The notes below the pieces were generated by a model. The model was given only the letters and a program-made list of their open reading frames with translations. It was not told the origin of the DNA and searched no databases. Positions 32,177 to 58,989 of a stretch of 64,000 nt of DNA are shown here, one piece after another. Source of the DNA: Candidatus Omnitrophota bacterium. Lineage in GTDB: Bacteria > Omnitrophota > Gorgyraeia > JAHJTE01. The stretch lies in contig JAHJTE010000001.1 in assembly GCA_018830005.1 (NCBI GenBank), positions 577,332 through 641,331 on the forward strand, read 5' to 3'. Each line of letters opens with the position of its first letter. Positions within the stretch are counted from its first letter, which is position 1. The position numbers were made by a program, and so were the translations under genes.

Positions 32177-32284
32177 CGGTATAGTTCCCGCTAAAATCTC
32201 TGTTCTACAAAACCGAACACTTGTTCTATATCATAGAACACCCTGTCGCAAAACTTGCATACTTTTTGCGACAACACACTACCG

Positions 32285-32333
32285 TCATCCCCGCCCCCGC
32301 TTTCGCGGGGATAAACTCCAGCGGGGACCCATT
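32285..32333. repeat. intergenic structured repeat, copy 2
   Basis: GTCATCCCCGCCCCC-GCTTTC-GCGGGG-ATAAACTCCAGCGGGGACCCA. Same family as 15375-15447. Confidence 0.5.
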
Positions 32334-32471
32334 TGTCACAAATAATATGCACTTTTTGTGACAAAGTAACTCCTCATGCACTCGTACAAATTATCTATAT
32401 TTATCTATAACTAGTGATATTTTGTACAATTTCTGCAAAAAAGCCTTTCCAACCCACACCAAAGAAAACCC

Positions 32472-32519: not shown

Positions 32520-32538
32520 ATAAAAAGGAGTGAACATT

Positions 32539-34698: not shown

Positions 34699-34799
34699 AT
34701 TTTATTCCGGACATTATTTCGGACATTTATCGGCCATTTCGGACAATTGAAAGATGAGCCTAAGGGGACATAAAAGGGACAAATAAGCAGGATCTTATT

Positions 34800-35824: not shown

Positions 35825-35850
35825 ATTTTTGTGAGGAGAAGAGAAAATCT

Positions 35851-38576: not shown

Positions 38577-38580
38577 TGAA

Positions 38581-43340: not shown

Positions 43341-43450
43341 AGAAATTCGTTTAAAGAAAAATCGAGGGATATAATACTTATTTATTTTACAATTAAGTAT
43401 TGCGTCTACGTAATTTTCCTTGAGAAGTCAATTTGTTAGGAGGCTAAAAA

Positions 43451-44713
43451 ATGAATAGTGCAATTGAAACTTTTTATTCAGATTTAAGGCGCTTGAAAGA
43501 AGGAAAGTTGGCCATATTTTTCGGTGCGGGATCGAGTTATGATTATGGAATTCCCACTATGGAAGAAATGGCGAAGATGCTAATTGAAGAATTAAAAAAT
43601 GGTACAAGTAAAATTTTTGATAAAGATACATGCACAGTTTTAAATTCAATTATTGGTTTATCAACTAAAGATAGCGAGGGCGAGAGTAAAAAGCAAAAAA
43701 ATAGTTCACAATGGAATATTGAAGATTTATTGACACGATTACATCGTATTCAAGAAGCTATAGGCGATGAAGGGTCTCCTTTCCCAAAGGTTAATGCTAC
43801 TATTGGTTCATCTGATTTTTCGAAAGATGAGATTAAACATGCTGAGTCAAAATTAGTTGAGTTTATGGTCAAATGCTATCAGCTAGACATCGTTGACAAA
43901 ACCTCACATGGTGTCAAATCGATAGAATATCTGTCTAACTTTTTTGAGTGCTTGGGGGGTTTTTATAATTCAATTTCTGTTTTTACAACTAATAACGATC
44001 TGTGTATTGAGACAGCTCTGCTTCAGCTTTCACAGAGACCTAAAAATACTCAAAAGAAAACTTTTTACTTAATAGATGGATTTTCTCATGGTGCGCTACC
44101 AATATTTTCGATGACTAATTTTTCAATTGTACCTCCCACTCAATCTAATCGTGTAGTTGTATATTTATGGAAATTGCACGGTTCAATAGATTGGACATAT
44201 ACTTGCCCATTAACAGATAATGAGGACGAGAAAACAGAAAATACTAAGTTTCACGACGATTCTATTATTTGTAGATATATCGACCCTGATATGTGGAGAA
44301 AATTTCAAAAAGCCGGAGCTATTTCCAAAGCATCTTCGTTAGATCAATCAAAAATAATGATTTTCCCGACACCATCTAAATATTCTCAGACTTATAACAA
44401 CCCATATATGGATCTATATCAAGCTTTTCGCCGAACACTAGAGACTTGCGAACTTCTACTAGCAGTTGGCACTAGCTTTCCAGATAGTCATATAAATTCA
44501 GCAGTGAAATCGTTTATTAATCGTGATAATACCCAACTTTACGTAGTTGATCCTGAAGTAACATGTGAATCTATTCATAAGCTATTTGGTAAATGTAATT
44601 CCATACAGCCGATCATCAAGTCAGGATTTAAAGATTTTATTCAAGAGGTCCGCAATATCGAATTAATGCGAGAAAAAGAAAGCCCAAAAGAAGGAAGGGA
44701 TAATAATGAGTAA
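43451..44713 (+). CDS. SIR2-family (SIR2_2) NADase-like protein, Sir2-HerA defense component
   Basis: N-terminal KLAIFFGAGSSYDYGIPT (GAGxS) motif of the SIR2_2 family. Overlaps the downstream HerA-like gene. Confidence 0.75.
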   Translation: MNSAIETFYSDLRRLKEGKLAIFFGAGSSYDYGIPTMEEMAKMLIEELKNGTSKIFDKDTCTVLNSIIGLSTKDSEGESKKQKNSSQWNIEDLLTRLHRIQEAIGDEGSPFPKVNATIGSSDFSKDEIKHAESKLVEFMVKCYQLDIVDKTSHGVKSIEYLSNFFECLGGFYNSISVFTTNNDLCIETALLQLSQRPKNTQKKTFYLIDGFSHGALPIFSMTNFSIVPPTQSNRVVVYLWKLHGSIDWTYTCPLTDNEDEKTENTKFHDDSIICRYIDPDMWRKFQKAGAISKASSLDQSKIMIFPTPSKYSQTYNNPYMDLYQAFRRTLETCELLLAVGTSFPDSHINSAVKSFINRDNTQLYVVDPEVTCESIHKLFGKCNSIQPIIKSGFKDFIQEVRNIELMREKESPKEGRDNNE

Positions 44714-46559
44714 ACGTATAGGTGAAATATTAGCTGTAAGCGGTGTAAATGTCACAATAGAAGCAGACCCAAGCTTAAGCGATTTGCATGTTCGGCACGC
44801 TGGAAAAACATATTCTGTTGGGCAACCTGGTTCATATCTTCTTGTTGATCGTGGGCATGATAAACATCTTATTTTAGTAACAACTGTTCGTAAGATGCGT
44901 TGGTCTTCTGCGTCGCAGAATTCTGAAATTTCTTCTTCTGATAATATGCGAGAAGGTCTTCCCAAAGGTAATTTCCCATATTTACCCAAAGCGCCTGAAT
45001 TGATTGATCGGACGCTTATCGATGGACTTCTCGTAGGTTCAATTATCGGGAGGCGATTTGAGATAGGTGTTACACACCTGCCGATAGTGGGGGATAGTGT
45101 TACCCTTGCTCTTCAGGAACATCTTTCAATAGCACTAGCCCCTGATAAAGATCGACACACAGTTTCAATTGGGACCTTTGTTGATTCGAATATCTCTGTC
45201 CATCTAGACTTAGACGATCTTTGTGGTAAACATTCAGCAATTGTAGGCACGACTGGTTGCGGAAAATCTTACACCGTCGCACGCTTATTGCAAGAGCTAG
45301 TATGTAAATATCCCAGTGCAAATATTATTGTGTTTGATCTGCATGGTGAATATCGTAAATGTTTTGAGCATTCAAATTATATACGGGCAGATAAACTTAC
45401 ACTTCCCGCATGGTTGCACTCGTTCGAAAACTTATTTGATCTGTGTGCCGATTTAAGTAATCAGTTTAACATTCATAATCAACGATGGGCTTTTCGAGAC
45501 GGCATATTTCAGCTTAAACAAAGATATTGCAAGGATATTTTAAAGGACGAATCCCTATCAAAGAATATCGATTTAGATTCGCCTATCCCTTTTGATTTTG
45601 AGCATTTAGTTAATTATTTAAAAAACTTGAATAATGAAACCAGAAAATCTGACGATGATAAGCCAGCTTATGCAACTGCTGGCGATCATGATTTATTTAA
45701 GGAACTCATTGAATATTTGCCAAAAAAACGAGGGAGTATAGCCGCTGGCCCTCTAAATGGAGAGTTAGATCGGCAAGTATTAAGAGTCGAGGCGAGATTT
45801 AAGGATCCTAGATATGCTTTTATGTTTCAATATGAAAAACCTAAAGAAGGGGATCTTGAAAGACTAGTGCGACAAGTATCAGGTCTTATACTCGATTCTC
45901 CCTTACCTATCACGGTTTATGACCTTAGTTATCTTCCTTCGGAAACAGTTGGAACAGTTGTAGCTACGATATCGCGTATTATTTTTCAAGTCTATTTTCT
46001 AGCCAAGCGTCGTGAGTTTGTCCCAACGCTTATTGTTTTCGAAGAAGCACATAATTACATATCTCATAGATCTCGCAGTGCTTATGGTGATGCTCGTGAG
46101 GCTGCTGAAAGAATTGCAAAAGAGGGCCGTAAATTTGGAATAGGCATGCTGGCAGTAAGCCAGCGTCCTAGTGAACTTAGTGAGACTTTATTGAGTCAAT
46201 GCAATACATTCTTATGCATGCGGCTTGCTAATTCTGTTGATAAAAATCACATTTTGTCCTTATTGCCTGACTCAATGAGTAATTTAGTAGATATTTTACC
46301 TATTTTGCCACGAGGGCATATTTTAGCAGTTGGGCAAGCTACAAAAATGCCGGTACGGACAATTGTTACTAAAATAGAAAATAAAAATAATGAGCCCGAT
46401 AGTGATGATCCGCCATTTGGAAAAAAATGGAGTGGGGATATTACGAAAAGAAGTATTCCTGATATAGAAAAAATATGCGATATGTGGATAAGGTCAGAAA
46501 AACAAGACACGGATGATATTGCTTCAAAGACAAAAAATTTATCGAGCGAGAAAAAATAA
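44706..46559 (+). CDS. HerA/FtsK-like ATPase (DUF87), Sir2-HerA defense component
   Basis: Walker A AIVGTTGCGKSYTV and Walker B LIVFEEAHNY. 617 aa. Confidence 0.75.
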   Translation: MSKRIGEILAVSGVNVTIEADPSLSDLHVRHAGKTYSVGQPGSYLLVDRGHDKHLILVTTVRKMRWSSASQNSEISSSDNMREGLPKGNFPYLPKAPELIDRTLIDGLLVGSIIGRRFEIGVTHLPIVGDSVTLALQEHLSIALAPDKDRHTVSIGTFVDSNISVHLDLDDLCGKHSAIVGTTGCGKSYTVARLLQELVCKYPSANIIVFDLHGEYRKCFEHSNYIRADKLTLPAWLHSFENLFDLCADLSNQFNIHNQRWAFRDGIFQLKQRYCKDILKDESLSKNIDLDSPIPFDFEHLVNYLKNLNNETRKSDDDKPAYATAGDHDLFKELIEYLPKKRGSIAAGPLNGELDRQVLRVEARFKDPRYAFMFQYEKPKEGDLERLVRQVSGLILDSPLPITVYDLSYLPSETVGTVVATISRIIFQVYFLAKRREFVPTLIVFEEAHNYISHRSRSAYGDAREAAERIAKEGRKFGIGMLAVSQRPSELSETLLSQCNTFLCMRLANSVDKNHILSLLPDSMSNLVDILPILPRGHILAVGQATKMPVRTIVTKIENKNNEPDSDDPPFGKKWSGDITKRSIPDIEKICDMWIRSEKQDTDDIASKTKNLSSEKK

Positions 46560-46641
46560 TATAACTATGCGATGATTTTAAAGGAAACTACCAGTAGACC
46601 AAGGTTTTTGTGAGCAGACCGAAAACTGTAATAAATGCACA

Positions 46642-47547
46642 ATGAAAGATAAAATTTTAGAAAACGCAATTGATTTTAACCAGAAAGGAATGAAATATTA
46701 CGTAGGAGAAGATATGAAACATTCTCTGCTAAATGTAGCTGTTGCAGCGGAATTATTAGGGAAAGCTTTTTTGGTAGGTATAAATTCTTGTTTGATCATT
46801 GATAGAGATTTTGATTCTTTTTTACATATATGTGGAGAAGGTAAGCATGCAAAGAAAAGTCCTGCAAGTATTCGAACGATTGGAGCTAAAGAAGTATTTA
46901 GTCGTTGTGCCCAGATTGTTCCCAAGCTAAAAGACTACGACGTAGAAATGAGTTTGTTGGCTGATTTTAGAAGCGGTGTTCTTCATTTGGCAGAACACGA
47001 GAAAGAGTTTACAAAGAAAGTTTTCCTCCCTTATTTAAAGTTTGTAAAGATATTGTTAGAAGCCATGAAATTATCTTTAAGCGACTATTTTGGTGAATTC
47101 GCGCAACTTGTTGAAACTAGTATCAAGGAGGCTACGAAAGAAGTTGACATTAAAGTCGAACGGCTTATTGCTAAGGCGAAGATCAGCTTTAAAGAGAGAT
47201 TTGAGGATGTGGAAGCGCCAGTGAAAAGAAATATAATCAAAAGTATAATCGACAATTATGTTCTATCGCAGTATGAAGAAGAATTAACCGAATGTCCCGC
47301 TTGTGAAAACGATGCAGTTGTGACGGGATCTCATGAGGTCACGGATTGGGATGTTGATTTTGATCGTTACGGGAATCCAGAAGGGGCATATCCAATCGTC
47401 AAATTATATGCGACCTCTTTTAGATGTAATGTTTGTGGTTTAAAACTCAATACTTCCGAAGAATTAGAGTCTGCGGGCATTGATACTATTGTGCGTTTAG
47501 AAAATGTCAACCCAGCAGATTTTTACGATCCCGACAACACTTTCTAA
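46642..47547 (+). CDS. hypothetical protein with a C-terminal CxxC...CxxC zinc ribbon
   Basis: 301 aa. CPACEN ... CNVCG. Confidence 0.45.
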   Translation: MKDKILENAIDFNQKGMKYYVGEDMKHSLLNVAVAAELLGKAFLVGINSCLIIDRDFDSFLHICGEGKHAKKSPASIRTIGAKEVFSRCAQIVPKLKDYDVEMSLLADFRSGVLHLAEHEKEFTKKVFLPYLKFVKILLEAMKLSLSDYFGEFAQLVETSIKEATKEVDIKVERLIAKAKISFKERFEDVEAPVKRNIIKSIIDNYVLSQYEEELTECPACENDAVVTGSHEVTDWDVDFDRYGNPEGAYPIVKLYATSFRCNVCGLKLNTSEELESAGIDTIVRLENVNPADFYDPDNTF

Positions 47548-47602
47548 ATGATTTTCATAGGTAAAATTGTAGAAAAAAATAAAATTTTTCGAATGTCTTC
47601 TG

Positions 47603-48163
47603 ATGAAGGCGTATCGAGAGAATAATTTGCAAAATATGGAGGAAGCTATGAATACAAATTTTGATCAACCCTTCGATTTTAAGGTATCCGATTCATCTGA
47701 AAATTTTGATACTTGGATTAATCGTGAATACATACCTGCTGAATCGAGAACATTGTTACGTAACGCCAACATTCTTTTTGTCCCTCATGAGAATTTTCAC
47801 GAACAGAAAGTTCCTGTGTTTCCTCACAAAACTGAGGAAGTCTTTCATTTTCTTCGAAGGCATGCCCCTAAAGGGATTAATGTCGACATCTGTATTGCAG
47901 ATGATGATTATAAGGAAGTTGTCCTCCATTCTGCTTTAATTATTTTTGGAAGTATAGTTGTATCGGCGATAGCACTTCCTGTTCTTAAGGATTTACTGTC
48001 GGAATATTTGAAACAGAAATTATTTAACAAGTCTAACAGCAATATTAAAGTTTCATTGACCGTTGTTAATACTTCTGGTAAAGGGAAGCAGTTTGATTAT
48101 GAAGGGCCTATTGAAAATTTCGATAAAGTGGTTGCCAAAATCCAACGGGCTGGAGAGAAATAA
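47603..48163 (+). CDS. hypothetical protein (start uncertain: 47603, 47636 or 47648)
   Basis: ORF with one hydrophobic helix (LIIFGSIVVSAIALPVL). Confidence 0.4.
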   Translation: MKAYRENNLQNMEEAMNTNFDQPFDFKVSDSSENFDTWINREYIPAESRTLLRNANILFVPHENFHEQKVPVFPHKTEEVFHFLRRHAPKGINVDICIADDDYKEVVLHSALIIFGSIVVSAIALPVLKDLLSEYLKQKLFNKSNSNIKVSLTVVNTSGKGKQFDYEGPIENFDKVVAKIQRAGEK

Positions 48164-48166
48164 TCT

Positions 48167-49006
48167 ATGGACACTGAAGCAATTAAGCAATTTTTGAATG
48201 ATGTCCATCAGAGACATAAGGATTATGATTATACAAAAGTTAAATCGGTGTTACAGGAATTAAAACGAGGATTCGTTGCTACTAATAAACAGGATGAGGC
48301 CAAAGAAGTATGGTGTTATGAGCAAACAATAAATGCTCAAAAGAATTTTATGGAAGCTTACAAAGCATTAAAACAAGAAAAGTTTTATGAGGCTTGGTGT
48401 ATTTTGGAAAAATGCGAGATTGCCCTTTTGTATTTAAAACCGCATTTTTATCAACGGTTTTCGGAATATTCTTTGGATTTTATCGAAAATCATGCGCGAA
48501 TGTTACAATCATTGTATCCATATAAACTCTTTATAAGTCCAGAGATGCTTATCCATCATTACAAATGCAGTATATGCGATCAAAGAGTCGTTCTTCGGAA
48601 TCCGTGTAGACATGAAGTTGGAGAGATTTATAATGGCGAGATGTGCGTAAGAATCATAGACGGAATTGAGTTTCTAGGCTCAGCTTTTGTAACAAATCCT
48701 GTTCAAAAGTACTCAGTTCCGTTTTTGACCGATCAACAGACAGGTAAGACAGTAGATCCATATAATTATAACCTAGTAAAATTTTTAATTGAGAAGCTGT
48801 CTACACCATTTGATGATTGGAGCTTGAAATGGACGAAAAAGCTTCATCCGCATTCAAAATTTAAACATCTTAGTAGGAATGACAAATGTCCATGCGCTTC
48901 GGGGAAGAAATATAAGCAATGTTGCCTTAATAAAAAAGGAGTGCTAATGGATCATTGTATATTTTCTATTCCTGGAATAGAAGGTTGTGAAGAAAGGATT
49001 CTTTAG
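48167..49006 (+). CDS. hypothetical protein with a C-terminal SEC-C metal-binding motif
   Basis: KCPCASGKKYKQCC near the C-terminus. Confidence 0.5.
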   Translation: MDTEAIKQFLNDVHQRHKDYDYTKVKSVLQELKRGFVATNKQDEAKEVWCYEQTINAQKNFMEAYKALKQEKFYEAWCILEKCEIALLYLKPHFYQRFSEYSLDFIENHARMLQSLYPYKLFISPEMLIHHYKCSICDQRVVLRNPCRHEVGEIYNGEMCVRIIDGIEFLGSAFVTNPVQKYSVPFLTDQQTGKTVDPYNYNLVKFLIEKLSTPFDDWSLKWTKKLHPHSKFKHLSRNDKCPCASGKKYKQCCLNKKGVLMDHCIFSIPGIEGCEERIL

Positions 49007-49147: not shown

Positions 49148-49888
49148 ATGAGCACAACCTACGACCTCAACAAAATAAAATTCGCTACCGATGAAGCGAC
49201 GTTCAAACGTGCGGTGGGGTTATATGAGGGCGGCAAGGTGACGGAGGTTGAGGAGGCCTTAGGTGATTGGACAGCCATTGTGCTTGGGATTAAGCCGTAC
49301 CGGGTTTCTGTGTCAGGGCGTAATTACAAGCATAGCCATTGCACCTGTTATGTTGGAGAAAAAGGCACGCTTTGTAAGCACATGGTTGCTTTGGCAATCC
49401 ATGCGGTTATGGGAGGGAAGCCATTGGACGATAAGGATAAAGAGCTTTCTTGTGGGATTGAATACAGCGGGCGTCGCGGTGTGCTGAATAAGGAAGAATT
49501 AGAAGCGCTTAAGAAAGCTGTTACTGAATCTATGCGATATATAAAGCCTTACCGGGGGCCCTCACGCACCTGGTTTGCTAATCAGGATTCTTTACGGGAA
49601 GGATGCAACCGGTTGTCAGCCGTTATTTCTAGCCTGCCGGTTAACAAGCAGGTGGTTGATATCTTGGTCAAATTGCTTTTGCGCTTGGAAAGGAAGCTAA
49701 GTGTCGGAGGAGTGGACGATTCAAACGGTATTGTGGGAGGATTAGCCGGTGAATTAGTGGCTCTGCTTGAAGGATTCACAAAAATAGATCCGTCATGTAT
49801 TGATTCCTTTGAACCGCTTTGCGGGAAAGAGTATTGTTTCGGTTGGGAAGATCCACTTGTCCGTATTTTTGACGAGAGAGTTAAATAA
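49148..49888 (+). CDS. SWIM zinc-finger domain protein
   Basis: YKHSHCTCYVGEKGTLCKHMVA (CxCx(n)CxH). Confidence 0.55.
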   Translation: MSTTYDLNKIKFATDEATFKRAVGLYEGGKVTEVEEALGDWTAIVLGIKPYRVSVSGRNYKHSHCTCYVGEKGTLCKHMVALAIHAVMGGKPLDDKDKELSCGIEYSGRRGVLNKEELEALKKAVTESMRYIKPYRGPSRTWFANQDSLREGCNRLSAVISSLPVNKQVVDILVKLLLRLERKLSVGGVDDSNGIVGGLAGELVALLEGFTKIDPSCIDSFEPLCGKEYCFGWEDPLVRIFDERVK

Positions 49889-49894
49889 GAATAA

Positions 49895-51109
49895 TTGAGA
49901 GAAGAGATGGCTGAAGAAGTGATGGGAAAAGATTTAACAGAGAATGTCCAAGAATTGGCCGAGGCGTGGTATAAGGGCGAGTTTGACTTAGGATATTACA
50001 ACTTTTATATCTGCACCGCGACCGAAGGATTGATTCAGAAATGCAAGGACGAGCATAAGATTAAGGTGTCGCGTTCGGATATAGAAGATATGTGCAAGCT
50101 GGACCTGCTTGAGTTCATATTGGATAAAAAAGACGGGAAAAAGATGTTTCCTCAGTTTATAGCTGACAGGGTAGCGTTTATAAAGGAATTACAGGCAAAT
50201 CTTAATTATCCGGTTCCAAGGTTACAGCAGATTATCGCTTATGAGAACGAGTCGCTGCCGTATTCAAACGAGGCATGTGATTTCTATTATGCTGACAGAA
50301 AGAATATTATGACCTGGCTTATTAAGAGGCTTAAATTTGAGATAAATGGCAGGAAAGAGTACTTGAAGGCGCTTGATGCGATTAATAAAAAATACGCTGA
50401 TGATGTAAAAAAGAAAAGAATAAAAAGAGTGATTGCTGATTTGGTTAAAAATGCAGAGGCAAGTATTGTCACCATTGAAGAGGTTGTCACCGAGTTAGCA
50501 AAGTGGAAATGGAAGGGCTTATCCAAACAGCAGAAGGATGAAGTGGTAAAAGTTGTTTTTGAACAACAGCTTTACGATGAGCGTGAGCGCATATCTGATA
50601 TGAAGCACTATTATAATAAGATATTATCGGGATACAGCCCTCAAGTTGAGTTTAAAAAGCCTGAGACAGCAAAGGAGCGGTTGGATTTTAGGCAAATTAA
50701 CTGGGAGGAAACAATCGAGTCCGTTAAGATGTACTCGCAGTTTATCGATTTTTTCGCGACTCCGTATTTCTCTGTGGAAATTGATAGGAAAGCAATCACT
50801 ATAAAGATAACAAATCCTAAGGAAGTGAGCACTCCCTTAAAAGGCGCGATAGATAAAATTTACACTATTTTTAAAAGCCGTTTTGGATACAGGCGAAAAG
50901 GATGGGGAGAGCGTTCAGGGAAAAAGCAACTTATGGAGCAGCGCAACGAGAAGCTGAGAAAGCTTTACTCAATGATGCGCAAAGAGAAACCAAATGTAGC
51001 CAGCGGGATTTTGATTGACCGGCTTATCGAAGAAACAAAAAAGACGGAGATCCCAGTTTTGACCACCGAAAGGATAAAGAGAATTATTTATACAAAGAAT
51101 ATGTCGTAA
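49895..51109 (+). CDS. hypothetical protein
   Basis: 404 aa ORF with coding-like composition and no recognisable motif. Confidence 0.45.
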   Translation: MREEMAEEVMGKDLTENVQELAEAWYKGEFDLGYYNFYICTATEGLIQKCKDEHKIKVSRSDIEDMCKLDLLEFILDKKDGKKMFPQFIADRVAFIKELQANLNYPVPRLQQIIAYENESLPYSNEACDFYYADRKNIMTWLIKRLKFEINGRKEYLKALDAINKKYADDVKKKRIKRVIADLVKNAEASIVTIEEVVTELAKWKWKGLSKQQKDEVVKVVFEQQLYDERERISDMKHYYNKILSGYSPQVEFKKPETAKERLDFRQINWEETIESVKMYSQFIDFFATPYFSVEIDRKAITIKITNPKEVSTPLKGAIDKIYTIFKSRFGYRRKGWGERSGKKQLMEQRNEKLRKLYSMMRKEKPNVASGILIDRLIEETKKTEIPVLTTERIKRIIYTKNMS

Positions 51110-51162
51110 ACTCTCGCGCTTATTCTCGCATATGCGTGTAAATTTATTATAGTTTACGACAT
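51101..51162. repeat. 14-bp inverted repeat (AATATGTCGTAAACT / AGTTTACGACATAT) with a 38-nt spacer
   Basis: Perfect 12-bp arms at 51101-51112 and 51151-51162, overlapping the stop codon of the upstream gene. Possible element boundary or recombination site. Confidence 0.4.
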
Positions 51163-51190
51163 ATCCAGAGAAGCTTTTTTAGGGTATAGT

Positions 51191-51228
51191 CCCTGTAGGA
51201 ATAAAAACCTGCAGGGATTTTTTATTTT
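51191..51228 (+). terminator. rho-independent terminator
   Basis: CCCTGTAGG-aataaaaa-CCTGCAGGG hairpin followed by ATTTTTTATTTT. Confidence 0.6.
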
Positions 51229-51255
51229 ATGGCAACGACAAAAGGCGAGATAAAA

Positions 51256-51573
51256 ATGAGAAGAGTAAAAGTTGATGAAGTGGTTTTCTACCCCATACGT
51301 CCTACCGAAAAAGGTTTAATCGGTTTTGCCTCCTGCTTATTCGATAGACGCCTTTCCTTGAGCAGTATTGCCATATATACACGGCCTGACGGAAAAGATT
51401 ACAGGCTTCTTTTTCCCTCAAAGCGGCTCCCGAACAATAAGGAAATAAATATATTTTATCCCGTGAATAGCGAGACTTACGAGCTGATAAAAGACGCGAT
51501 CGTGAAAAAAATAGAAGAATTAACCGAAAAGGTGAAAGAAAGAGGTGGATATGAAGAATATGGAAAATTATGA
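51256..51573 (+). CDS. SpoVG-family nucleic-acid-binding protein homolog
   Basis: MRRVKVDEVVFYPI..GLIGFASCLFD..LLFPSKRLPNNKEINIFYPVNSETYELIKDAI aligns with the SpoVG fold. Alternative start at 51229. Confidence 0.5.
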   Translation: MRRVKVDEVVFYPIRPTEKGLIGFASCLFDRRLSLSSIAIYTRPDGKDYRLLFPSKRLPNNKEINIFYPVNSETYELIKDAIVKKIEELTEKVKERGGYEEYGKL

Positions 51574-54157
51574 TTTCAGGGACATTATCGAAAACGTAAG
51601 GGAAAGGTATGACATTGGCGAAGTAGTAAGCCGACATGTAAGGCTTACTCATAGCAAGAAAGGCATTTGCCCTTTTCATGAGGAAAAGACGCCGAGTTTC
51701 TCGGTAAATACGAAAGGGCAGTATTTTTATTGCTTTGGCTGCGGTAAGGGCGGAGATGTTTTTAAATTTCTTGAGCTTTATGAGAGGAAGTCCTTTGCCG
51801 AGGTTTTAAGAGAGCTTGCGGATAGGGCCGGTATTAAGGTTCCAGACTTAGGTCCTAATTCGCACAAGCATATTGATGAAGAAAGGACGACTCGAGATAT
51901 CCTTAGCGTCGCAGCGGAATATTATCACGAGCGCATTACGCAAGAAGCAAACGATTATTTGACAAAGAAAAGAGGCATTAAGGATGAGATAATCTCCAGA
52001 TTCAAAATTGGTTATACAAACGGGAATTTAAACGAATACCTGATTAAAGAGTGCTGTTTCCCGCTCGATATTTGTCTTAAGGCCGGAGTCCTTAAGAAAA
52101 GAGAAGATGGTACCATCAAAGACTACTTCTGCAATAGGATTATTTTTCCTAATTTCAGGCGCGGCCAGGTGGTTCACATGTCCGCAAGAGGATTGGGTGA
52201 TAATGAGCCGAAATACCTGCATCTTCCGGGAGAGATAAAATACCCATATAATGAAGACTCGCTTTATGAAAAGGAAGTCTATGTTGTTGAGGGAATACTT
52301 GACTGCCTATCTCTTATCCAGTGTAGTTATCCTGCCGTTGCCGTTTTAGGCGCATCCAATTTTAAGTCCGAATACTTACAAAAGTTTTCCCGCTGCGAAA
52401 AGGTCTACATTTGCCTTGATGGCGATGAGGCGGGCATAAAAGGTTCGCTTAAGATCGGCAACATGATAGGAGATAAAGCAAGAATCGCTTCCTTGCCGGA
52501 AGGTATGGATATCAACGATTACCTTAATAGTTACACAAAAGATGATTTTGATAAGTTAATCGCCTGCTCCAAAGATCCTATTAAATATGAGCTTAGCTTT
52601 ATCTCGCCGGATACGGATAAAACCGAGCTTCCCCAAAAGCTTGAACCTATCTTGAAAAAATTAAGCTCTATGGAAAAAGCCCGGATAGAGGCGTATCTCA
52701 GCTATGAGATTAAGGCGCGTTTCAAGCTTAAAAAAGAGGATGTAGACGGCTATAGAGATATGATTATGAAGAGCCGCAAGGCGGATATGCAGGAAAGTAA
52801 GAGCCGGGCGGAGGAAGAAGAAGCTAAGCCAGTATATACCGCTTTATTTGAGGGCTTGATTGACGTAGTAGAAAAAGAAGGCAAACCCGCTTTTTTGATA
52901 AAGGAAGGTGATGATCTTTTAATCGTGAACAGCCTAAAGAAGGACGGCTTGCTTTATCTCCCGCCGCCTAAAGAGCAGATTCCATGGCTTATGCCGCGGG
53001 GAGAGGAGATATTGAAATTATATGAGACCCAATCAGAAAAATCCGCTGAGGAATGTGATAGAGAGCTTTATGACGAGCTGTTAGCTTACCATAAGTCAAT
53101 TTCGGAATTGCCGGAGGATAGCTATTACGACCTAATAACGGCCTGGGACCTACACACCTATCTTTTGGAAACAATAGAATATACGCCGATTATATGCCTG
53201 TTTGCCGTTCCTGAGCGCGGCAAAAGCCGCACCGGCAAGGGCATGATTTACATTGCCTTTCGCGGGATACATGTCGAGTCTTTAAGGGATGCCTATCTTG
53301 TGAGGGTTGCGAATGATCTCATGGCCTCTTTGTTTCTTGACGTAAAGGAGATATGGAAAAAGGCGGAGAAAAACGGGAGCGAAGACATACTATTACACCG
53401 TTTTGAGAAAGGGGCAAAAGTGCCGAGAGTCCTTTTTCCCGATAAGGGCGCGCACAGGGATATCGTGTATTATTCCATATTCGGCCCTACCATAATAAGC
53501 ACAAACGAGGGGATACACAGGATTCTTGAAACAAGGGCTATTCCTATTAACATGCCCGATACGACAAGACGTTTTGAAGATGATGTTACGCCTTTACGCG
53601 CCTTACCGCTCAAGGAAAAATTAATCACGTTCCGGGCAAGGCATTACGGGAAGGCGTTGCCATGTATGCCGAAACCGGCTTTAGGCAGGTTAGGGGATAT
53701 ACTTAAGCCTATCCAGCAGATTATACGCCTGGTCAGGCCGGAGCGAGAGGCTTATTTTCTAAAGCTTGTTAAGAGGTTAGAGTCGGAGAAATTGATTGAA
53801 AAAGCGGATACTATTGAGGCTCAGATCTTGGCTGTCTTGTCGAATCTCAGAAGCAATGTGGACAAGGGCATGCTTCCGGTTAAGGAGATTACGGATAGCT
53901 TTAACGAAGATAGGAGTGATAAATACAAGGTTACCTATCAGAGGATTGGCCGGAGGCTGTCGGCCATGGGGTTTAGTAAGGTAAGGACAAGTAACGGCGC
54001 TTCTGCCATAGTCTGGGATGAGGAGAAATTGGAGAGAATTAAGGACTCATACGGGTTGAGCAAAACGTCAGAAATACCAGATACGTCAGATACACCTAAA
54101 GACCCTTATGTTACTGACGTTTCTTGCGATACTGACGTTTCCCGGAGGCCATTTTGA
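51545..54157 (+). CDS. DNA primase (DnaG-like CHC2 zinc finger plus Toprim) with a large C-terminal domain
   Basis: CPFHEEKTPSFSVNTKGQYFYCFGCGKGGDVFKFL zinc-binding motif. Toprim-like VYVVEG...LDGDEAG. 870 aa. Confidence 0.75.
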   Translation: MDMKNMENYDFRDIIENVRERYDIGEVVSRHVRLTHSKKGICPFHEEKTPSFSVNTKGQYFYCFGCGKGGDVFKFLELYERKSFAEVLRELADRAGIKVPDLGPNSHKHIDEERTTRDILSVAAEYYHERITQEANDYLTKKRGIKDEIISRFKIGYTNGNLNEYLIKECCFPLDICLKAGVLKKREDGTIKDYFCNRIIFPNFRRGQVVHMSARGLGDNEPKYLHLPGEIKYPYNEDSLYEKEVYVVEGILDCLSLIQCSYPAVAVLGASNFKSEYLQKFSRCEKVYICLDGDEAGIKGSLKIGNMIGDKARIASLPEGMDINDYLNSYTKDDFDKLIACSKDPIKYELSFISPDTDKTELPQKLEPILKKLSSMEKARIEAYLSYEIKARFKLKKEDVDGYRDMIMKSRKADMQESKSRAEEEEAKPVYTALFEGLIDVVEKEGKPAFLIKEGDDLLIVNSLKKDGLLYLPPPKEQIPWLMPRGEEILKLYETQSEKSAEECDRELYDELLAYHKSISELPEDSYYDLITAWDLHTYLLETIEYTPIICLFAVPERGKSRTGKGMIYIAFRGIHVESLRDAYLVRVANDLMASLFLDVKEIWKKAEKNGSEDILLHRFEKGAKVPRVLFPDKGAHRDIVYYSIFGPTIISTNEGIHRILETRAIPINMPDTTRRFEDDVTPLRALPLKEKLITFRARHYGKALPCMPKPALGRLGDILKPIQQIIRLVRPEREAYFLKLVKRLESEKLIEKADTIEAQILAVLSNLRSNVDKGMLPVKEITDSFNEDRSDKYKVTYQRIGRRLSAMGFSKVRTSNGASAIVWDEEKLERIKDSYGLSKTSEIPDTSDTPKDPYVTDVSCDTDVSRRPF

Positions 54158-54224
54158 GGATGCATTGTGGTTATTTAATGGGAAGATTATCAGTTTACTT
54201 TAACAGGAGAGGAGGTGATTAGAC

Positions 54225-54374
54225 ATGAGCAAGAATCAATGGGATAAAGCGTTTGAAAGGATGCAGTCTGAAGCGGGGCAAGAGTCCAGAGAACATAAGC
54301 AGAGATGGGATAAGACGCTTGAGAGATTAGCTAATGAGTGGAATGAAACAGCAAGAGAAATCCAGCGTTGTTAA
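54225..54374 (+). CDS. small hypothetical protein
   Basis: 49 aa ORF after a strong RBS (AGGAGAGGAGG). Below the ORF-track cutoff. Confidence 0.3.
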   Translation: MSKNQWDKAFERMQSEAGQESREHKQRWDKTLERLANEWNETAREIQRC

Positions 54375-54534
54375 ATTCTGGTAGATGTTGTTAATGGTTG
54401 GTGCAGACTTTGGAGGGGGAATTCGTTGGACATGGAGGCAAGGTTAACGAATATAAAATGGGTCCTTCCGGAGGGGGCTTGGGCCGAGGGTCAGGCGAGG
54501 CGCAGTTTGTCAGTGATTTTAGGTTCATTTTTTT

Positions 54535-54653
54535 GCATGTCGGTGTCGGTATATCAAGGGAAAAAAATCATAATTTTAAGCACAAAACCGAAAAAATCAG
54601 GGGCAAGTAGACCGACATGAGCCTTTAGCAAATGTCGGATAGGATGCCGGATT
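54535..54653. repeat. iteron-like (C)ATGTCGG repeats, candidate replication origin
   Basis: GCATGTCGGTGTCGGT, ACCGACATG (inverted), ATGTCGGAT and ATGCCGGAT within 120 bp of an AT-rich non-coding stretch downstream of the primase. Confidence 0.35.
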
Positions 54654-54675
54654 TTTTCAGAAAGGACAAACCATC

Positions 54676-55314
54676 ATGACAGAAGAACAAAAAAGACAAA
54701 ACGAGGTGAATAAACAAAGCATTGCCGAGATAGCCAAGAAGAAAAGGCAGCTTTATCTTTATAACAAGATGCAGAGCGGAAAACCTCTCTCTGTTTCCGA
54801 GATAAAGGAAGTCGAGGCATTTGAGGCCTCAACTTTATCTCCGGGAGTCGTCAGGACTCAAGCAGAGGTAGCGCAGACCCTTGGCGTAACCAAAAGGACT
54901 GTTGAGCGATGGGCTAGTCAGGGAATGCCGATAACTCGTGAAGGCAATTATGATCTTCTGGATATCAAGGCCTGGAAGGTCACGAGAAAGAGATTCAAGT
55001 ATTTAAAAGACAATGAAAAAGAAAAATGGGACATAGAGTATCGAAAAAACAAAGCGCTTATAATCAAGATCGAATACGAAAAGACTTTAGGCCAGCTTAT
55101 ATCAAGAGAGGAAGTTGAAAAAGGAAGGATCGCCAGAATCATTGCCGTTAAAAATGCTTTTCTTGTTCTGCCTACGAGACTTGCGCCTTTACTTGCGATG
55201 AAGGAGCCAAGAGAAATCGAATCCATCATGCATGAGAACATTGCTGAAATATTAGATGATTTTGCAGGCGTGAGAAAAGGAATAAATGGAGAAGATGTGC
55301 AAGAGGAATGGTGA
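54676..55314 (+). CDS. HTH DNA-binding protein (terminase-small-subunit or replication-regulator-like)
   Basis: AEVAQTLGVTKRTVERWASQGMPI helix-turn-helix. 212 aa. Confidence 0.4.
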   Translation: MTEEQKRQNEVNKQSIAEIAKKKRQLYLYNKMQSGKPLSVSEIKEVEAFEASTLSPGVVRTQAEVAQTLGVTKRTVERWASQGMPITREGNYDLLDIKAWKVTRKRFKYLKDNEKEKWDIEYRKNKALIIKIEYEKTLGQLISREEVEKGRIARIIAVKNAFLVLPTRLAPLLAMKEPREIESIMHENIAEILDDFAGVRKGINGEDVQEEW

Positions 55315-55555
55315 AGATAAAAGTATTAGGCCTCGAGGGTGGGAAGCTTTAGAAATGAAGCTTAAAGGTAGGGGTCTGTCCATAGCGGAGGTTCAAGAGG
55401 CTCGCAAGTCGTTTTATGAGGGGATAGAGCTTTTGTCTAAGATGTTTTTGGTGTGCTATGAAGCGGAGAAGCAAGAAAAATGATGATAAGAAATACCTTG
55501 TATAAGGTTGTTTAATACGGTACAATACGAATGCTTATTAAAAGGGTCATTTATT

Positions 55556-55732
55556 ATGAAGACTTATACAATGACAGAGACGGCTAAAATGCTGGGAGTT
55601 CATCGCCAGACTATGATTAACTGGATTCGTAGGGGTTGGGTTAAGCCCAAAAGGGATTATAAGGACTGGCCGGTGTTTACGGATGAGTGTATCAAGAAGA
55701 TCAAGGATTGGCGGGAGAAGTTAAAGGATTAA
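55556..55732 (+). CDS. excisionase/MerR-like HTH protein
   Basis: MTETAKMLGVHRQTMINWIRRGWVKP is typical of the Xis/AlpA/MerR HTH_17 family. 58 aa. Confidence 0.5.
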   Translation: MKTYTMTETAKMLGVHRQTMINWIRRGWVKPKRDYKDWPVFTDECIKKIKDWREKLKD

Positions 55733-55736
55733 AAGT

Positions 55737-56252
55737 ATGTTCAAAAAATTATGGGACAGTATAAAATATAAAAAAATTTTGAGTGAAGTTGGAGATGGCC
55801 GATACCAAATATTTTCTCCAGAAGATCCATTTATTTCATCTTATTTATCTCCGGGATTAGCTAAGAAGCATGAAGATAAATTTACATGCGTATGTCTTGC
55901 TACTTGTGCTACTATTGTGACTTCAACAATTGATTATGCTTGTGAAGGAGTAATTATTCCTAAATGTTCACCGGTAGTTTTGTGGAGAACTTTTCGATAT
56001 TGCGAACACGATGGTGTCCCGCATCTTAACGCAGATGATAACATTATCTTTCCAGATCAAAAGGGCAGTATTTGGAAAGTATCAAAGACAGATTCCGAAG
56101 ACCACTATATTTCTATTGCTACATGGGCAGGACTCAACGTTATAGCATCTGCTTACCATTTACCACAGGTTCCGAGCGGAGCTTATTCGGATTATGTAGA
56201 AAATGGAGCTTCTGTGCCAATTACATTTGTGCCGGTGGGGAACAATAAGTAA
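55737..56252 (+). CDS. hypothetical protein
   Basis: 171 aa, Cys-containing, no recognisable motif. Confidence 0.4.
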   Translation: MFKKLWDSIKYKKILSEVGDGRYQIFSPEDPFISSYLSPGLAKKHEDKFTCVCLATCATIVTSTIDYACEGVIIPKCSPVVLWRTFRYCEHDGVPHLNADDNIIFPDQKGSIWKVSKTDSEDHYISIATWAGLNVIASAYHLPQVPSGAYSDYVENGASVPITFVPVGNNK

Positions 56253-57931
56253 TGAAAGTAGCATTATACACAAGAGTCAGTACTGAGGATCAGGCGCGTG
56301 AGGGGTTCTCGCTTGAGGTTCAGCGGGATTACCTTTTGCAGTATGCCAAGAATTTCGGCTGGGATGTGTTTTGCAGTATGTCCGGCCGGGATATTTATAT
56401 GGATGACGGGTATTCAGGTGGAAACATGGACAGGCCTGCTTTGCAGAGGCTTCTCTTCGACGCTAAGAATAAACAGTTTGATTTAGTGATGGTCTATAAG
56501 CAGGACAGGCTCAGCAGAAAATTAAAGGATCTTTTAGCTTTATTAGAAGAGTTTGAGTCGCTTGGTATTGGCTATAAATCTGCAACCGAGCCTTTTGACA
56601 CTACATCAAGTGCCGGTAAAATGGCAATCCAAATGCTTGGTAGTTGCGCCGAATTTGAAAGGAACCGGCTTGTTGAAAGGGTATTTCCCGGAATGATCGT
56701 AGGCGTAAAGAAAGGCCACTGGCAAGGCGCCAGATATGCCCCATACGGATATAGATACAATAAAGAAATTAAGAAGTTTGAAGTCCATCCAGAAGAAGCA
56801 AAAATAGTTAAAGAGATTTTCTCTATGTATTTAGGCGGCAAAAGTACTTCTCAGATAGCAGGCCATTACTATAATCTGGGCATTGCTTCACGCCAGGGAG
56901 GTAAATTTTACACTAAATTTATCTCATCCATCCTGAAAAGCAAAGCTTATCTAGGCACCCTTGTGTGGAATAAGCGGCGTTATGATAAGAAAGAAAAAAC
57001 AAAAAACGGCGAGGGCAAGGGCTACAAATACGTCAACAATGACCCGTCAAAAATAATTGAAGTCCCGAATTGCCACGAGCCGATTATCTCCCAGGAAGAA
57101 TTTGACCGGGCTCAAAAACTGCTCAAAAGAAACCGCACTAATACCGTAGTCAGGTTCAGAAATAATGTTTATCATTTATCAGGGATATTGAAATGCAACG
57201 AGTGCGGGATGAATTATCGCGGGCTCACATTAACGGTTAATCACCACACAAAAATGAGGCGGCCGTGGTATTGCTGTTCGTCTGTTGGCGTGTCATATAT
57301 CAAATGTAAGAATAAATCCGTTACGGCTGACGCAATCAATAAGCAGGTCTGGGATATCATCGATACTATAAGCAAGAACCTTCATGTAATCGAAGAGCTT
57401 AGCGATATTATCAAGTTAAGCGCTACTGAGCCGGAGCAACATTATATTGAAGAGTTGGAGACAAAAGAAAAGGGCATTAGCAAGAACCTTGAGAAACAAA
57501 AGGCCCTCTATGAGGTATTTTCAGAGGATAAGATTAACATCGATATCTATAAAGACCGGGCCGAGCTGTTAAGGAATGAGGAGAAGAAACTTAGGCAAGA
57601 TGTTAAGGCGATCCAGTTAAGGATCCTTGAGAAGAGGAATGCGGTCAATCTGGTAAAAGCCACGCAGGATTTTCTTTTAAGGTTGAGGAGCAATCCTAAG
57701 GGCGAGCAGATGGATTACCTCATCAAAACGTTTATGAGGATAATATTCAGGGCTATCTATATCCAGAACCAGGAGATTGTCAGGCACGACCTGAATGAGC
57801 CCTGGAAGAGTTGTTATGAAGAGGGGATGAAATGGCTGAAAACGCAGGAAACAGCGCCAATAGAGGCGAAAAAGGCGGAAAAGGCAAGAAGAAGTTACGT
57901 ATACTTTTGCGTACCTTCGGATGTCAAATGA
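56252..57931 (+). CDS. large serine recombinase (integrase)
   Basis: N-terminal resolvase domain ALYTRVSTEDQ (Ser nucleophile) and DLVMVYKQDRLSR, a recombinase domain, a zinc ribbon (CNECG...CCSS) and a coiled coil. 559 aa. Confidence 0.85.
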   Translation: MKVALYTRVSTEDQAREGFSLEVQRDYLLQYAKNFGWDVFCSMSGRDIYMDDGYSGGNMDRPALQRLLFDAKNKQFDLVMVYKQDRLSRKLKDLLALLEEFESLGIGYKSATEPFDTTSSAGKMAIQMLGSCAEFERNRLVERVFPGMIVGVKKGHWQGARYAPYGYRYNKEIKKFEVHPEEAKIVKEIFSMYLGGKSTSQIAGHYYNLGIASRQGGKFYTKFISSILKSKAYLGTLVWNKRRYDKKEKTKNGEGKGYKYVNNDPSKIIEVPNCHEPIISQEEFDRAQKLLKRNRTNTVVRFRNNVYHLSGILKCNECGMNYRGLTLTVNHHTKMRRPWYCCSSVGVSYIKCKNKSVTADAINKQVWDIIDTISKNLHVIEELSDIIKLSATEPEQHYIEELETKEKGISKNLEKQKALYEVFSEDKINIDIYKDRAELLRNEEKKLRQDVKAIQLRILEKRNAVNLVKATQDFLLRLRSNPKGEQMDYLIKTFMRIIFRAIYIQNQEIVRHDLNEPWKSCYEEGMKWLKTQETAPIEAKKAEKARRSYVYFCVPSDVK

Positions 57932-58989
57932 ATGTTCGGGATTCTGAGATAATCTCCGGAAGCCTACTCATGAAGGGTTATAAAGTTGTTGACTCATCTG
58001 ATGATGCTGATGTTGTTCTCTTTAACACCTGCTCAGTACGGCAACATGCTGAGGATAAAGTCTGGTCAGAAATAGGCAAATTTAAACACGAAACACGAAT
58101 AATTGGACTCGTGGGTTGTATGGCTGAATACCACAAATTTGATGCATTCAAGAAAGCACCCAATATTGATTTTGTCTGTGGTCCGAATAATATAGCTTCA
58201 ATACCTTCTCTAATTGAACAGGCAAAGGCAGGCAATACTAAAGGTATGGCTATCGGCCAAAAACAACGTGATGAGTTTGCTTATAATACAAATTTTCAAG
58301 CAAAGAAAGACGATTCTTTTGTAGTGATTGCCGAAGGCTGTAATAATTTTTGCTCCTATTGTGTAGTGCCTTTTGTGCGTGGGCGAGAGCGCAGTCGCAA
58401 CCACAAAGATATCTTAAGAGAAATCCAGGCGCTTGTAACTAAAGGTGTTAAGGAAATAACACTTTTAGGTCAGAATGTTAACTCTTATCGTTGGAATGGA
58501 GTAGATTTCTCACAGCTTATGAATATGGTTAGTGGAATAGAGGGTTTGAGGTGTTTTAGTTTTGTTACAAGTCATCCTAAAGATGCCTCGAAAGATATGT
58601 TCGAGATTATTGCTAAATGTAGTAACTTAAAAAAATACCTGCATCTTCCGCTTCAGTCAGCCTCAGACAGAATTCTTAAGCTTATGAATAGAGGTTATAC
58701 CTTAAAAGAATACTTGAAAAAAATAGAAGATTATCGCAAGATAGTAGGAGGAGGCCTAAGTACAGATATCATTGTCGGTTTTCCTACCGAGACTGAAGGA
58801 GATTTTCAAGATACTCTGGAAGTCTTGGAAAAAATAAAGTTTGATAATGCCTACATTTTTAAATATTCTACCCGGCCGCATACTGAGGCTGCTAAATTAG
58901 AAGACGACGTAGGAATGCAAGAGAAAAAGCGCCGGCATAAAATTCTGCTTGATCTGCAAAAGCAAATCTCGAAAAAGAAGAAAATATGA
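57832..58989 (+). CDS. miaB: MiaB-family radical-SAM methylthiotransferase (no TRAM domain; N-terminus uncertain)
   Basis: LRTFGCQMN MTTase N-domain motif and CNNFCSYCVVP radical-SAM CxxxCxxC. Protein ends after the radical-SAM domain. First ~33 codons overlap the recombinase gene. Confidence 0.7.
   Translation: MAENAGNSANRGEKGGKGKKKLRILLRTFGCQMNVRDSEIISGSLLMKGYKVVDSSDDADVVLFNTCSVRQHAEDKVWSEIGKFKHETRIIGLVGCMAEYHKFDAFKKAPNIDFVCGPNNIASIPSLIEQAKAGNTKGMAIGQKQRDEFAYNTNFQAKKDDSFVVIAEGCNNFCSYCVVPFVRGRERSRNHKDILREIQALVTKGVKEITLLGQNVNSYRWNGVDFSQLMNMVSGIEGLRCFSFVTSHPKDASKDMFEIIAKCSNLKKYLHLPLQSASDRILKLMNRGYTLKEYLKKIEDYRKIVGGGLSTDIIVGFPTETEGDFQDTLEVLEKIKFDNAYIFKYSTRPHTEAAKLEDDVGMQEKKRRHKILLDLQKQISKKKKI

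Follow-up and report, generated by a model that had tools for sequence, protein, structure and literature searches.

An island at the 5' end of miaB in a Candidatus Omnitrophota genome, probably inserted by large serine recombinases and supplying the first codons of its target gene

Analysis of a 64-kb stretch of DNA from a Candidatus Omnitrophota bacterium (assembly GCA_018830005.1, contig JAHJTE010000001.1, positions 577,332 to 641,331; all 64,000 nucleotides are called the window and are numbered from its first letter) led us to conclude that its positions 11355-57923 are very probably foreign DNA, inserted by large serine recombinases at a specific site among the first codons of miaB, a tRNA-modification gene, with two stacked elements as the best reading of the layout. 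An earlier reading made from the letters alone (the sequence-only reading) had proposed that a serine-integrase element was inserted at the 5' end of miaB and now supplies the first codons of this gene, and that proposal is strongly supported by a displaced miaB start, by the splice of the left and right attachment (att) sites, by the position of the target throughout the integrase family and by the ribosome-binding site (RBS) and ATG that the element provides. Since left junctions lie at 15299 and 11355, the insertion amounts to 42.6-46.6 kb and includes the 11.4-51 kb that had been read as host DNA. The sequence is best read as the order host / B-O-P'1 / E1 remnant 11363-15298 (3.9 kb) / P1-O-P'2 / intact E2 15307-57915 (42.6 kb) / P2-O-B' / miaB, in which E2 would extend from 15299 to 57923 if the cores are counted (42.6 kb). 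On this reading the annotation of ~46 kb of an Omnitrophota-type genome is corrected, because its phosphate-uptake, arsenic/fluoride resistance and defence genes ride on integrase-borne DNA and not on the core chromosome. The target of the integrase (Int) is the DNA coding for the universally conserved MiaB motif T-F-G-C-Q-M-N; no tRNA or tmRNA gene was found in the window as an alternative target.

The large serine recombinase recognised by the sequence-only reading was readily confirmed. Int (56252-57931), which lies on the + strand as do all open reading frames (ORFs) of note in the window and all features with coordinates given below, is 559 aa long in its integrated, short form, ends in ...YVYFCVPSDVK and contains the Pfam domains PF00239 Resolvase (6.8e-34, residues 3-156), PF07508 Recombinase (7.2e-24, 180-294) and PF13408 Zn_ribbon_recom (2.9e-9, 309-368). 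It has a PHROG integrase match (3e-111), its nearest solved relatives in the PDB are TP901-1 integrase (8e-31) and SPbeta SprA (5e-18), and its catalytic motif Y6-T-R-V-S10-T-E-D-Q (YTRVSTEDQ, Ser10) is invariant in 40 homologues; attP x attB recombination is the activity predicted for such a protein. The attR core TTCGGATG at 57916-57923 stands in the arrangement P2-O-B', with the P arm at ~57870-57915 and the B' arm at ~57924-57950, and host miaB sequence begins within or after this core, inside which the dyad geometry suggests, but does not prove, GA as the crossover dinucleotide. The last three codons of int together with its TGA stop are host miaB sequence (GGA TGT CAA ATG A) read in the other frame. 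The recombinase and miaB had been seen to overlap by ~100 nt, and with the longest miaB ORF this overlap measures exactly 100 nt (57832-57931), a dual-coding segment in which one frame gives the C-terminus of Int and another the MiaB N-terminus MAENAGNSANRGEKGGKGKKKLRILLRT. The start of MiaB is supplied by the element: the RBS GAGGGG is followed after five bases by the ATG at 57832, from where the frame is open into FGCQMN, and the result is a replacement N-terminus of 28 residues on a chimeric MiaB of 385 aa (57832-58989; Pfam UPF0004 and Radical_SAM). MiaB should still be produced, presumably via transcription out of the element, and this overlapping-frame design would keep an important tRNA-modification gene working after the insertion, an example of lowered host cost.

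The original start of miaB was found at the other end of the island. At 11331-11363 lies a displaced native miaB 5' end, ATG AAA AAG ATT TTT CTG AAG ACT TTC GGA TGA (MKKIFLKTFG followed by a stop), which is preceded by the RBS GAGGA and is the sole other native-type MiaB start that a six-frame search of the window returned. At the outer left junction, attL1, it is the B arm, and the core TTCGGATG of this junction occupies 11355-11362 in the arrangement B-O-P'1. The junctions at 11355 and at int/miaB have the 8-bp core in common, or 11 of 12 bases with the flanks, while their arms are otherwise unrelated; the core is present in three copies in the window (11355, 15299, 57916), and the pattern ACYTTCGGATG has three matches (11352, 15296, 57913) against 0.07 expected. 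When the left arm of the 11355 site is spliced to the right arm of the 57916 site, the product is a 365-aa native-type MiaB beginning MKKIFLKTFGCQMNVRDSE..., which resembles the N-termini of unoccupied relatives (MKKSVFIRTFGCQMN and similar), and in the reciprocal splice, the left arm of 57916 joined to the right arm of 11355, the Int frame stays open for 22 further codons. The junctions reconstructed in this way are ..CTGAAGACTTTCGGATGTCAAATGAATGT.. for attB, ..TTTTGCGTACCTTCGGATGGCCAATGGCCAG.. for P-O-P'2, ..GCGTACCTTCGGATGACCGTATGTATAAG.. for P-O-P'1 and ..CTATATCAAGACTTTCGGATGTCAAATGAA.. for P1-O-B'.

These junctions leave next to no probability for the much smaller element that the sequence-only reading had outlined, which would run ~6.8 kb back to an inverted repeat at 51.1 kb or ~25.7 kb back to palindromes at 32.2 kb, with ATACTTT(T)TGCG as the shared att core. 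The 14-bp inverted repeat is real and perfect, although its arms lie at 51099-51112 and 51151-51164, two bases away from where they had been placed; the 32.2-kb gap is indeed rich in palindromes, and both sites coincide with module borders. However, neither site holds the core or a miaB 5' fragment, and related elements conserve both the region of the inverted repeat and the genes on either side of it, the related locus L089 matching 51050-51232 at 87% over 183 nt. To our knowledge, serine integrases do not use att sites bordered by such terminal inverted repeats. The proposed core motif is at chance level, as ATACTTTTGCG with at most one mismatch gives 2 matches against 1.8 expected and none at 32263, where the supposed copy requires an inserted T and sits inside a local palindrome.

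Comparison with other MiaB proteins separated the element-derived from the host-derived part of the gene. At NCBI the MiaB and Int sequences are annotated as proteins of Candidatus Omnitrophota metagenome-assembled genomes. The closest MiaB proteins are 65-74% identical, the best relatives coming from Omnitrophota, and they have short native N-termini of the unoccupied type. The extension MAE...KKLRILLRTFGCQMN of the window's MiaB also occurs on several MiaB proteins whose overall identity is only 53-58%; in the DNA of distant loci this extension and the final int bases are near-identical, and after TTCGG there is ordinary coding conservation. Since the extension is common to distant loci and similarity falls after TTCGG, we conclude that it is a property of the mobile element and not of the host gene. 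Host synteny is kept 3' of miaB and is broken at the core on the upstream side: the downstream order miaB, SPOR/TPR protein, miaA, hflX, hrcA-grpE-dnaK-dnaJ is common to relatives (SPOR/TPR-miaA-hflX synteny in loci L001, L082, L084 and L085), and upstream of 11331 lie ordinary genes for a transaldolase, a response regulator, a GIY-YIG protein, a DnaJ-like protein, an MFS transporter and MscS. Locus L083 has a GIY-YIG homologue just 5' of miaB and no recombinase gene upstream of miaB, and no empty site for this element itself came to light.

Relatives of Int revealed the same target over and over. A protein search returned hundreds of them, 45-94% identical, and 101 of the 120 best homologues end in [ST][DAGV][VA][KR], which is the Int-frame product of the host codons GGN TGY CAR ATG A, with a TGA stop that comes from the ATG-A of Met-Asn; 13 more of these 120 have longer, attP-type tails (..SD(x)RWxxY...). 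The 80 loci returned by a metagenome scan, to which the attP-form locus L086 was added, provided 57 related loci with the Int 3' end present. In 45 of these 57, Int terminates 16 nt past the core start and within a miaB-like ORF, which carries on in frame, and attP forms make up the remaining 12. Of the 45 integrated elements, about 40 provide an RBS, an ATG and an N-terminus of 14-41 residues in the miaB frame, and the supplied RBS and ATG fall within CYEEGxKW, a motif conserved in Int. For a 93%-identical Int, three independent assemblies contain the attP form (L086-L088), and a terminal-overlap test for circularity on attP-form contigs was negative. Moreover, Int pairs that are 96-100% identical adjoin MiaB pairs that are 38-44% identical (L092/L093, 100 vs 41; L098/L101, 99 vs 38; different samples), from which we conclude that Int moved recently between very different targets or hosts. 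As MiaB of the host lineage is short (~365-390 aa, without a TRAM domain match) and other targets of the family have 430-500 aa, the integrases hit several kinds of MiaB-type genes. The anatomy of the junctions, the position of the target across the family, the movement of Int among different miaB genes and the supplied start codon are directly shown by the sequences.

It is very improbable that there was no mobile insertion at all and that a domesticated recombinase gene merely happens to overlap miaB in an ancestral, fixed arrangement. Such an arrangement would be in keeping with a locus known in occupied form only, with genes that are all co-oriented and with an unremarkable G+C content, but it is contradicted, at the level of the family at least, by near-identical Int proteins beside highly different MiaB proteins, by attP forms in several independent assemblies, by a miaB start displaced 46 kb upstream, by the short native N-termini of the closest MiaB relatives and by the miaB of L083 without a recombinase gene upstream.

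Insertion by Int being the preferred explanation, we asked which of the two left junctions belongs to the intact int gene, and on sequence grounds we favour the inner one, with its core TTCGGATG at 15299-15306 in the arrangement P1-O-P'2, as the left end that probably belongs to the intact element. In the P'1 arm of the outer junction (11363-11430) the Int frame continues as DRMYKYREMILELLKRLQEGGG to a stop, and its tail ..REMILELLKRL resembles the attP-form tail ..RTMILGILKRL of L154, whose Int is 43% identical; the P'1 DNA agrees with the L154 P' arm, in register, at 24 of 45 positions, and L154 is the only subtype it resembles. In the P'2 arm (15307-15365) the Int frame reads (SD)GQWPVYSKSMMSIAEALVE and a stop; the DNA after the 15299 core is GCCAATGGCCAGTTTATAGTAAG..., in which the Int-frame reading is SDGQWPVYSKSMMSIAEALVE and then the stop. 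This arm matches attP-form P' arms in register at 29 of 45 positions for L103 and at 27 of 45 for each of L108 and L168, the background from random 45-mers being 11.7 +/- 2.8 with a maximum of 22. Also, TTATAGTA is found in P'2 at the same offset as in L086 (Int 93% identical), and the P'2 tail is similar to that of L108 (SDGRCLPYRHSMADIAEALTGE) and to that of L103.

A single element of 46.6 kb, with 11355 as its functional attL and 15299 as an internal fossil (such as an attP region with scraps of int that co-integration brought in from another member of the family), appears unlikely to us but deserves serious consideration. The displaced miaB start, and with it an intact B arm, is present at attL1 only, P together with P'1 gives the best ungapped dyad symmetry (14/28, vs 11/28 with P'2), and both arms of the 15299 site resemble one attP, that of L168. 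On the other hand, P'1 is like a distant subtype only, whereas P'2 matches, in register, the P' arms and tails of close Int relatives (80-93% identical). Dyad symmetry of the att arms is modest, and its score cannot discriminate between P' arms because the true attP of L086 also scores low (10/28).

In the favoured two-element layout, E1 (11363-15298) is the probable remnant of an older, related element. It has three ORFs analysed with Pfam, coding for 83 aa (11538-11789), a 477-aa membrane protein (11740-13173) and a 600-aa sulfatase-like protein (13170-14972), as well as frame-broken traces of int (VFPGM..WQGAR at 14993-15055 and ..IDFE..EPFKSLY at 15208-15306). In front of the 15299 core, aaagcctatatcaagact agrees with the L168 P arm aaagtctatatcaggact (aaagYctatatcaRgact), and we read this left arm as the P arm of a distant family member. 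Two successive insertions at miaB, presumably that of E1 and then that of E2, would explain the stack, and the second would have been possible because the miaB start rebuilt by the first element mimics attB (AAGACT and the core are identical).

The location of attP within int has the consequence that integration changes the C-terminal tail of Int. Excision would rebuild attP inside int and lengthen this tail by 19-22 residues, and excision via the outer junction would also restore the native miaB start; the reaction would presumably need Int and a directionality factor, for which the HTH_17 protein encoded beside int is a candidate. The copy in the window may still be able to move. Two twists appear noteworthy: integration exchanges the Int tail and leaves a dual-coding overlap, and elements probably came to be stacked at the site of a serine integrase. 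Any regulatory role of the tail swap is conjecture. In its full form, which we hold to be doubtful, the att site inside int would act as a regulatory switch, giving a long-tailed Int when excised and a short, host-ended Int when integrated that differ in stability or directionality, while the rebuilt, attB-like miaB start would keep the site open and islands would stack at miaB. If true, stacking at miaB would parallel the tRNA-gene islands of tyrosine integrases and would be unexpected for serine integrases.

Several observations weigh against the conclusion that the island is foreign DNA in two stacked elements. The choice between the two left junctions has sequence similarity as its sole basis, the ungapped dyad symmetry given above favours P'1, and the int-remnant matches 5' of 15299 are short and weak. 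The G+C content of the island is not distinct from that of its flanks, much of the cargo (pst-pho, ars) resembles ordinary chromosomal genes, and there is no transfer or packaging machinery among the scanned ORFs of the island. No usable promoter signal for miaB was obtained, as promoter and terminator scans near int/miaB and attL gave counts no higher than in shuffles. No empty site, circle or attP form of this exact element was detected; the reconstructed native MiaB and the attP-form Int were absent, in exact look-ups, from 15 billion proteins, and the contigs with an identical downstream SPOR protein all carry the insertion (3 of 3), that is, only occupied forms are represented. A same-species comparison was precluded because the closest MiaB relatives are at most 74% identical, and a scan of a genome collection with MiaB gave best matches merely 53% identical and no same-species empty site there.

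The part of the island next to int (49148-56252, or 49.1-57.9 kb with int included) is its backbone and the only part with homologues in other loci of the family. It starts with a SWIM-domain protein (49148) and a 404-aa protein (49895), followed by the inverted repeat (51099-51164) and a terminator-like hairpin (51190-51226). The SpoVG-like gene of the sequence-only reading corresponds to the ORF 51229-51573, for which the Pfam match is weak (E 2.3e-6, just below the gathering score), its 870-aa CHC2-Toprim primase to 51545-54157 (CHC2/DnaG_N/Toprim), and its Xis-like helix-turn-helix (HTH) gene to the HTH_17/excisionase-like ORF 55508-55732; all of these were retained. Between primase and HTH_17 lie a gene for a 212-aa HTH protein similar to the small terminase subunit TerS (54676-55314; PHROG phrog_57, 4e-22, nearly full length) and a 65-aa ORF at 55286, and before int lies a unique 171-aa ORF without relatives (55737-56252). 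Homologues occur in 59 of 83 loci for HTH_17, in 42 of 83 for the 65-aa ORF and in 10 of 83 for the TerS-like protein; those of the SWIM protein, the 404-aa protein, SpoVG and the primase are found in L089, L104 and L114, and the gene order from the SWIM-domain ORF to Int is syntenic in L089 and L104. The iterons that had been reported in this region were not recovered: the repeat finder and Tandem Repeats Finder gave only two-copy short repeats and no family of at least three long direct repeats, and no set of three or more direct repeats of ~17-22 bp lies near a replication gene as in an iteron-controlled replicon.

The backbone raised the possibility that E2 is a phage satellite, as the sequence-only reading had suspected, or a degraded prophage, using a helper phage for packaging via the TerS-like protein; self-replicating integrative plasmid and plain genomic island are the alternatives. 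We entertain the satellite or prophage interpretation only tentatively, judging it less probable than its alternatives. The TerS-like gene, the primase and an int/HTH module laid out as in satellites speak for it, and so do two IMG/VR contigs predicted to be viral (L169 and L170; Int 80-83% identical, attP form) with genes for an internal-virion-protein-like product, TerS and a DnaD-like replisome organiser, support that is weak. However, among the ORFs scanned with Pfam and PHROG between 11.7 and 57.9 kb (all of at least 150 aa and many smaller ones), the TerS-like match was the only prophage-type hit, without any capsid, portal, large terminase (TerL), tail or lysis gene; this match may merely reflect a DNA-binding fold, 42.6 kb far exceeds typical satellites, and other family members differ in content. 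A link to phages or satellites is therefore possible but unproven, with a few phage-like genes in two IMG/VR relatives and no virion genes here. Pfam matches to relaxase, coupling protein or type IV secretion genes were likewise missing among the scanned ORFs. One DUF87/TrwB-like match was considered as a conjugation gene and rejected, since it is the HerA partner of SIR2 (PADLOC HerA 9e-126). Tested at the sequence level, the island thus behaves as a large-serine-integrase island that rebuilds its target gene, and does not behave as a prophage, a conjugative element or an iteron replicon.

Among characterised systems, phage-inducible chromosomal islands (PICIs), taken as compact islands of ~10-20 kb with int, regulators, primase/rep and packaging-hijack genes that are mobilised by a helper, and other satellites are alike in having int, small HTH proteins, primase and a TerS-like gene and in lacking virion genes, whereas the window element is 42.6 kb long, consists mostly of metabolic and defence cargo and has no known helper phage or capsid-remodelling genes. 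The integrases of TP901-1, SPbeta (SprA), A118/LI, Bxb1 and phiC31 share with Int the domain architecture, short att sites, a small core and imperfect dyad arms, and a separate directionality factor is presumed; they differ in their low identity outside the catalytic domain, and in the window attP lies inside the int ORF, where integration alters the C-terminus. Insertions of A118 and SPbeta split their targets (comK, spsM) instead of rebuilding them. With SSV1-type elements and mycobacteriophage BPs, the window element has in common an attP within element coding sequence and an element protein whose length changes upon integration; SSV1, however, uses a tyrosine integrase and its int gene is cut in two by integration. 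BPs has integration-dependent immunity with a tyrosine integrase, the altered protein being the repressor (PMC4557955).

The nearest described case is Burkholderia phage JC1, which, like Bcep22-like prophages, integrates at the rimO 5' end via a serine recombinase, with an 18-bp overlap region and an attP 41 bp upstream of the recombinase gene, and is a complete podovirus of a proteobacterial host (PMC9144972). As in the window, the target is a methylthiotransferase of the MiaB family, an in-frame ATG is supplied and only N-terminal residues change, and in B. multivorans the integrase gene overlaps rimO (PMC9144972); in contrast to JC1, which targets rimO, the window element targets miaB, belongs to Omnitrophota-type metagenome-assembled genomes (MAGs) and has no structural genes. 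A C-terminus of Int exchanged upon integration, a dual-coding segment of 100 nt and stacked elements, all of which we read in the window element, are not described in the JC1 paper (PMC9144972). The dusA-specific integrases define a large family of islands and prophages, variable in cargo, for which a tRNA-modification gene serves as target at a single site in its 5' end (Farrugia et al. 2015, PMC4482086). In these, too, the 5' end of the target is replaced by element sequence, but the recombinases are tyrosine recombinases with a different att architecture, and excised circles were seen there by the polymerase chain reaction (PMC4482086). Our literature search found these rimO (JC1) and dusA analogues only, and neither miaB-targeting serine integrases nor this Omnitrophota family turned up in it; the family is apparently widespread in Omnitrophota-type bacteria and undescribed. 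It defines a large group of serine integrases with hundreds of metagenome members, whose attB is the near-universal coding motif TFGCQMN of MiaB-type enzymes and whose att sites can be read from sequence, and its members are candidate broad-host integration tools for phyla without genetic systems.

Other loci of the family show further arrangements. In L151, a compact relative, a displaced start (MNETKILLKTFG and a stop) marks an attL of its own 11.6 kb upstream of attR, and its contents differ (Fic, NmrA-like, Replic_Relax-like); at 10250-10252 it has an in-frame stop near the int 5' end, for which a pseudogene, a sequencing error or recoding are possible explanations. In L139 (11202-17380) one ORF of 1868 aa comes after an attP-form Int, and an apparently native miaB start lies 6 kb downstream, and in L108 a second copy of a 58-nt block described below lies at 18210-18267, 6.5 kb past an attP-type junction. 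Members of this integrase family may often occur at miaB in arrays or in unusual arrangements. In two other MAGs the contig ends within the last ~100 nt of a family int, beside miaB (L084, 1-135; L085, 1-100); assemblies seem to break at the int/miaB junction, which fits mixed occupied and empty populations or repeated elements.

The cargo falls into two blocks. Block 1 (15455-32176) encodes, by Pfam, a methyltransferase, hemerythrin, a cupin, DsrE, TauE, a fluoride riboswitch with crcB, DUF190 and a TrmO-like protein, and continues with a phoB/phoR-like two-component pair, a porin, pstSCAB-phoU, arsR, arsP, thioredoxin, a DsbD-like protein, Acr3 and ArsC. The riboswitch (17803-17865; Rfam RF01734, 60 bits), 5' of crcB and the DUF190 gene, was the sole Rfam match. 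Block 2 (32530-49006) is a defence island with Pfam matches to an AbiEi-like protein and nucleotidyltransferase, two metallophosphoesterases and a PD-(D/E)XK nuclease, a type I restriction-modification system (hsdM 35851, hsdS 38581, hsdR 39825, the last fused to Peptidase_S24), SIR2 with HerA, two unknowns and a SEC-C-motif protein. The SIR2 and HerA anti-phage pair occupies 43451-46559 (PADLOC SIR2 9e-29), and L086 carries SIR2 too. In the R subunit (39825-43340, 1171 aa) the C-terminal Peptidase_S24 domain, of LexA/UmuD type (residues 1059-1165, E 6e-9), makes an unusual fusion, and this C-terminal part has a homologue in L158 and L118. AbiE-like NTP_transf_8 nucleotidyltransferase genes are present both in the host flank (5010-5720) and in the island (32530-34012).

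Conserved noncoding sequence was seen in the backbone. A G-rich block of ~58 nt (54460-54517; GGGTCCTT..GGGGG..GGCCGAGGGTCGGGCGAGGCGCAGTCTGTCAGTGAT) is 78-97% conserved in at least 23 loci of the family, is judged noncoding because of 1-2-nt indels among loci, and lies 55-200 nt 5' of the TerS-like gene wherever that gene was detected; a consensus RNA fold of the block gave no supported structure. It occurs in two copies in L093 and L108, and in L103 it is found just downstream of the attP-form int. On its 3' side an A/T-rich stretch leads to tandem (A/G)TGTC(N) units, at 54537-54553 in the window, of which both copies change together between loci. The heptamer ATGTCG[GT] is not enriched in the window (9 vs 7.7 expected), and 6 of the 9 sites are within 3.5 kb around the primase (51.10-54.64 kb), two as the arms of the 51.1-kb inverted repeat, one at 51631 and three at 54537-54638; a protein of replication or regulation may bind to it.

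At module borders, a GC-rich repeat resembling a miniature inverted-repeat transposable element (MITE; GTCATYCCCGC..GCGGGRAT..AAACTCCAGCGGGRA) is present at 15369-15445 and at 32281-32330. The second copy is flanked by two hairpin palindromes (TGTCGCAAAA..TTTTTGCGACA; TTGTCACAAA..TTTGTGACAA) within 32236-32375, between the ars operon and the defence island, and these are not att sites. Repeats of the same type were also detected in L089, L115, L124, L129, L151 and L168, and a MITE-like sequence, translated as ..RFRGND.., lies inside the variable linker of several Int homologues (e.g. P0123, P0125, P0137, P0143 and P0158).

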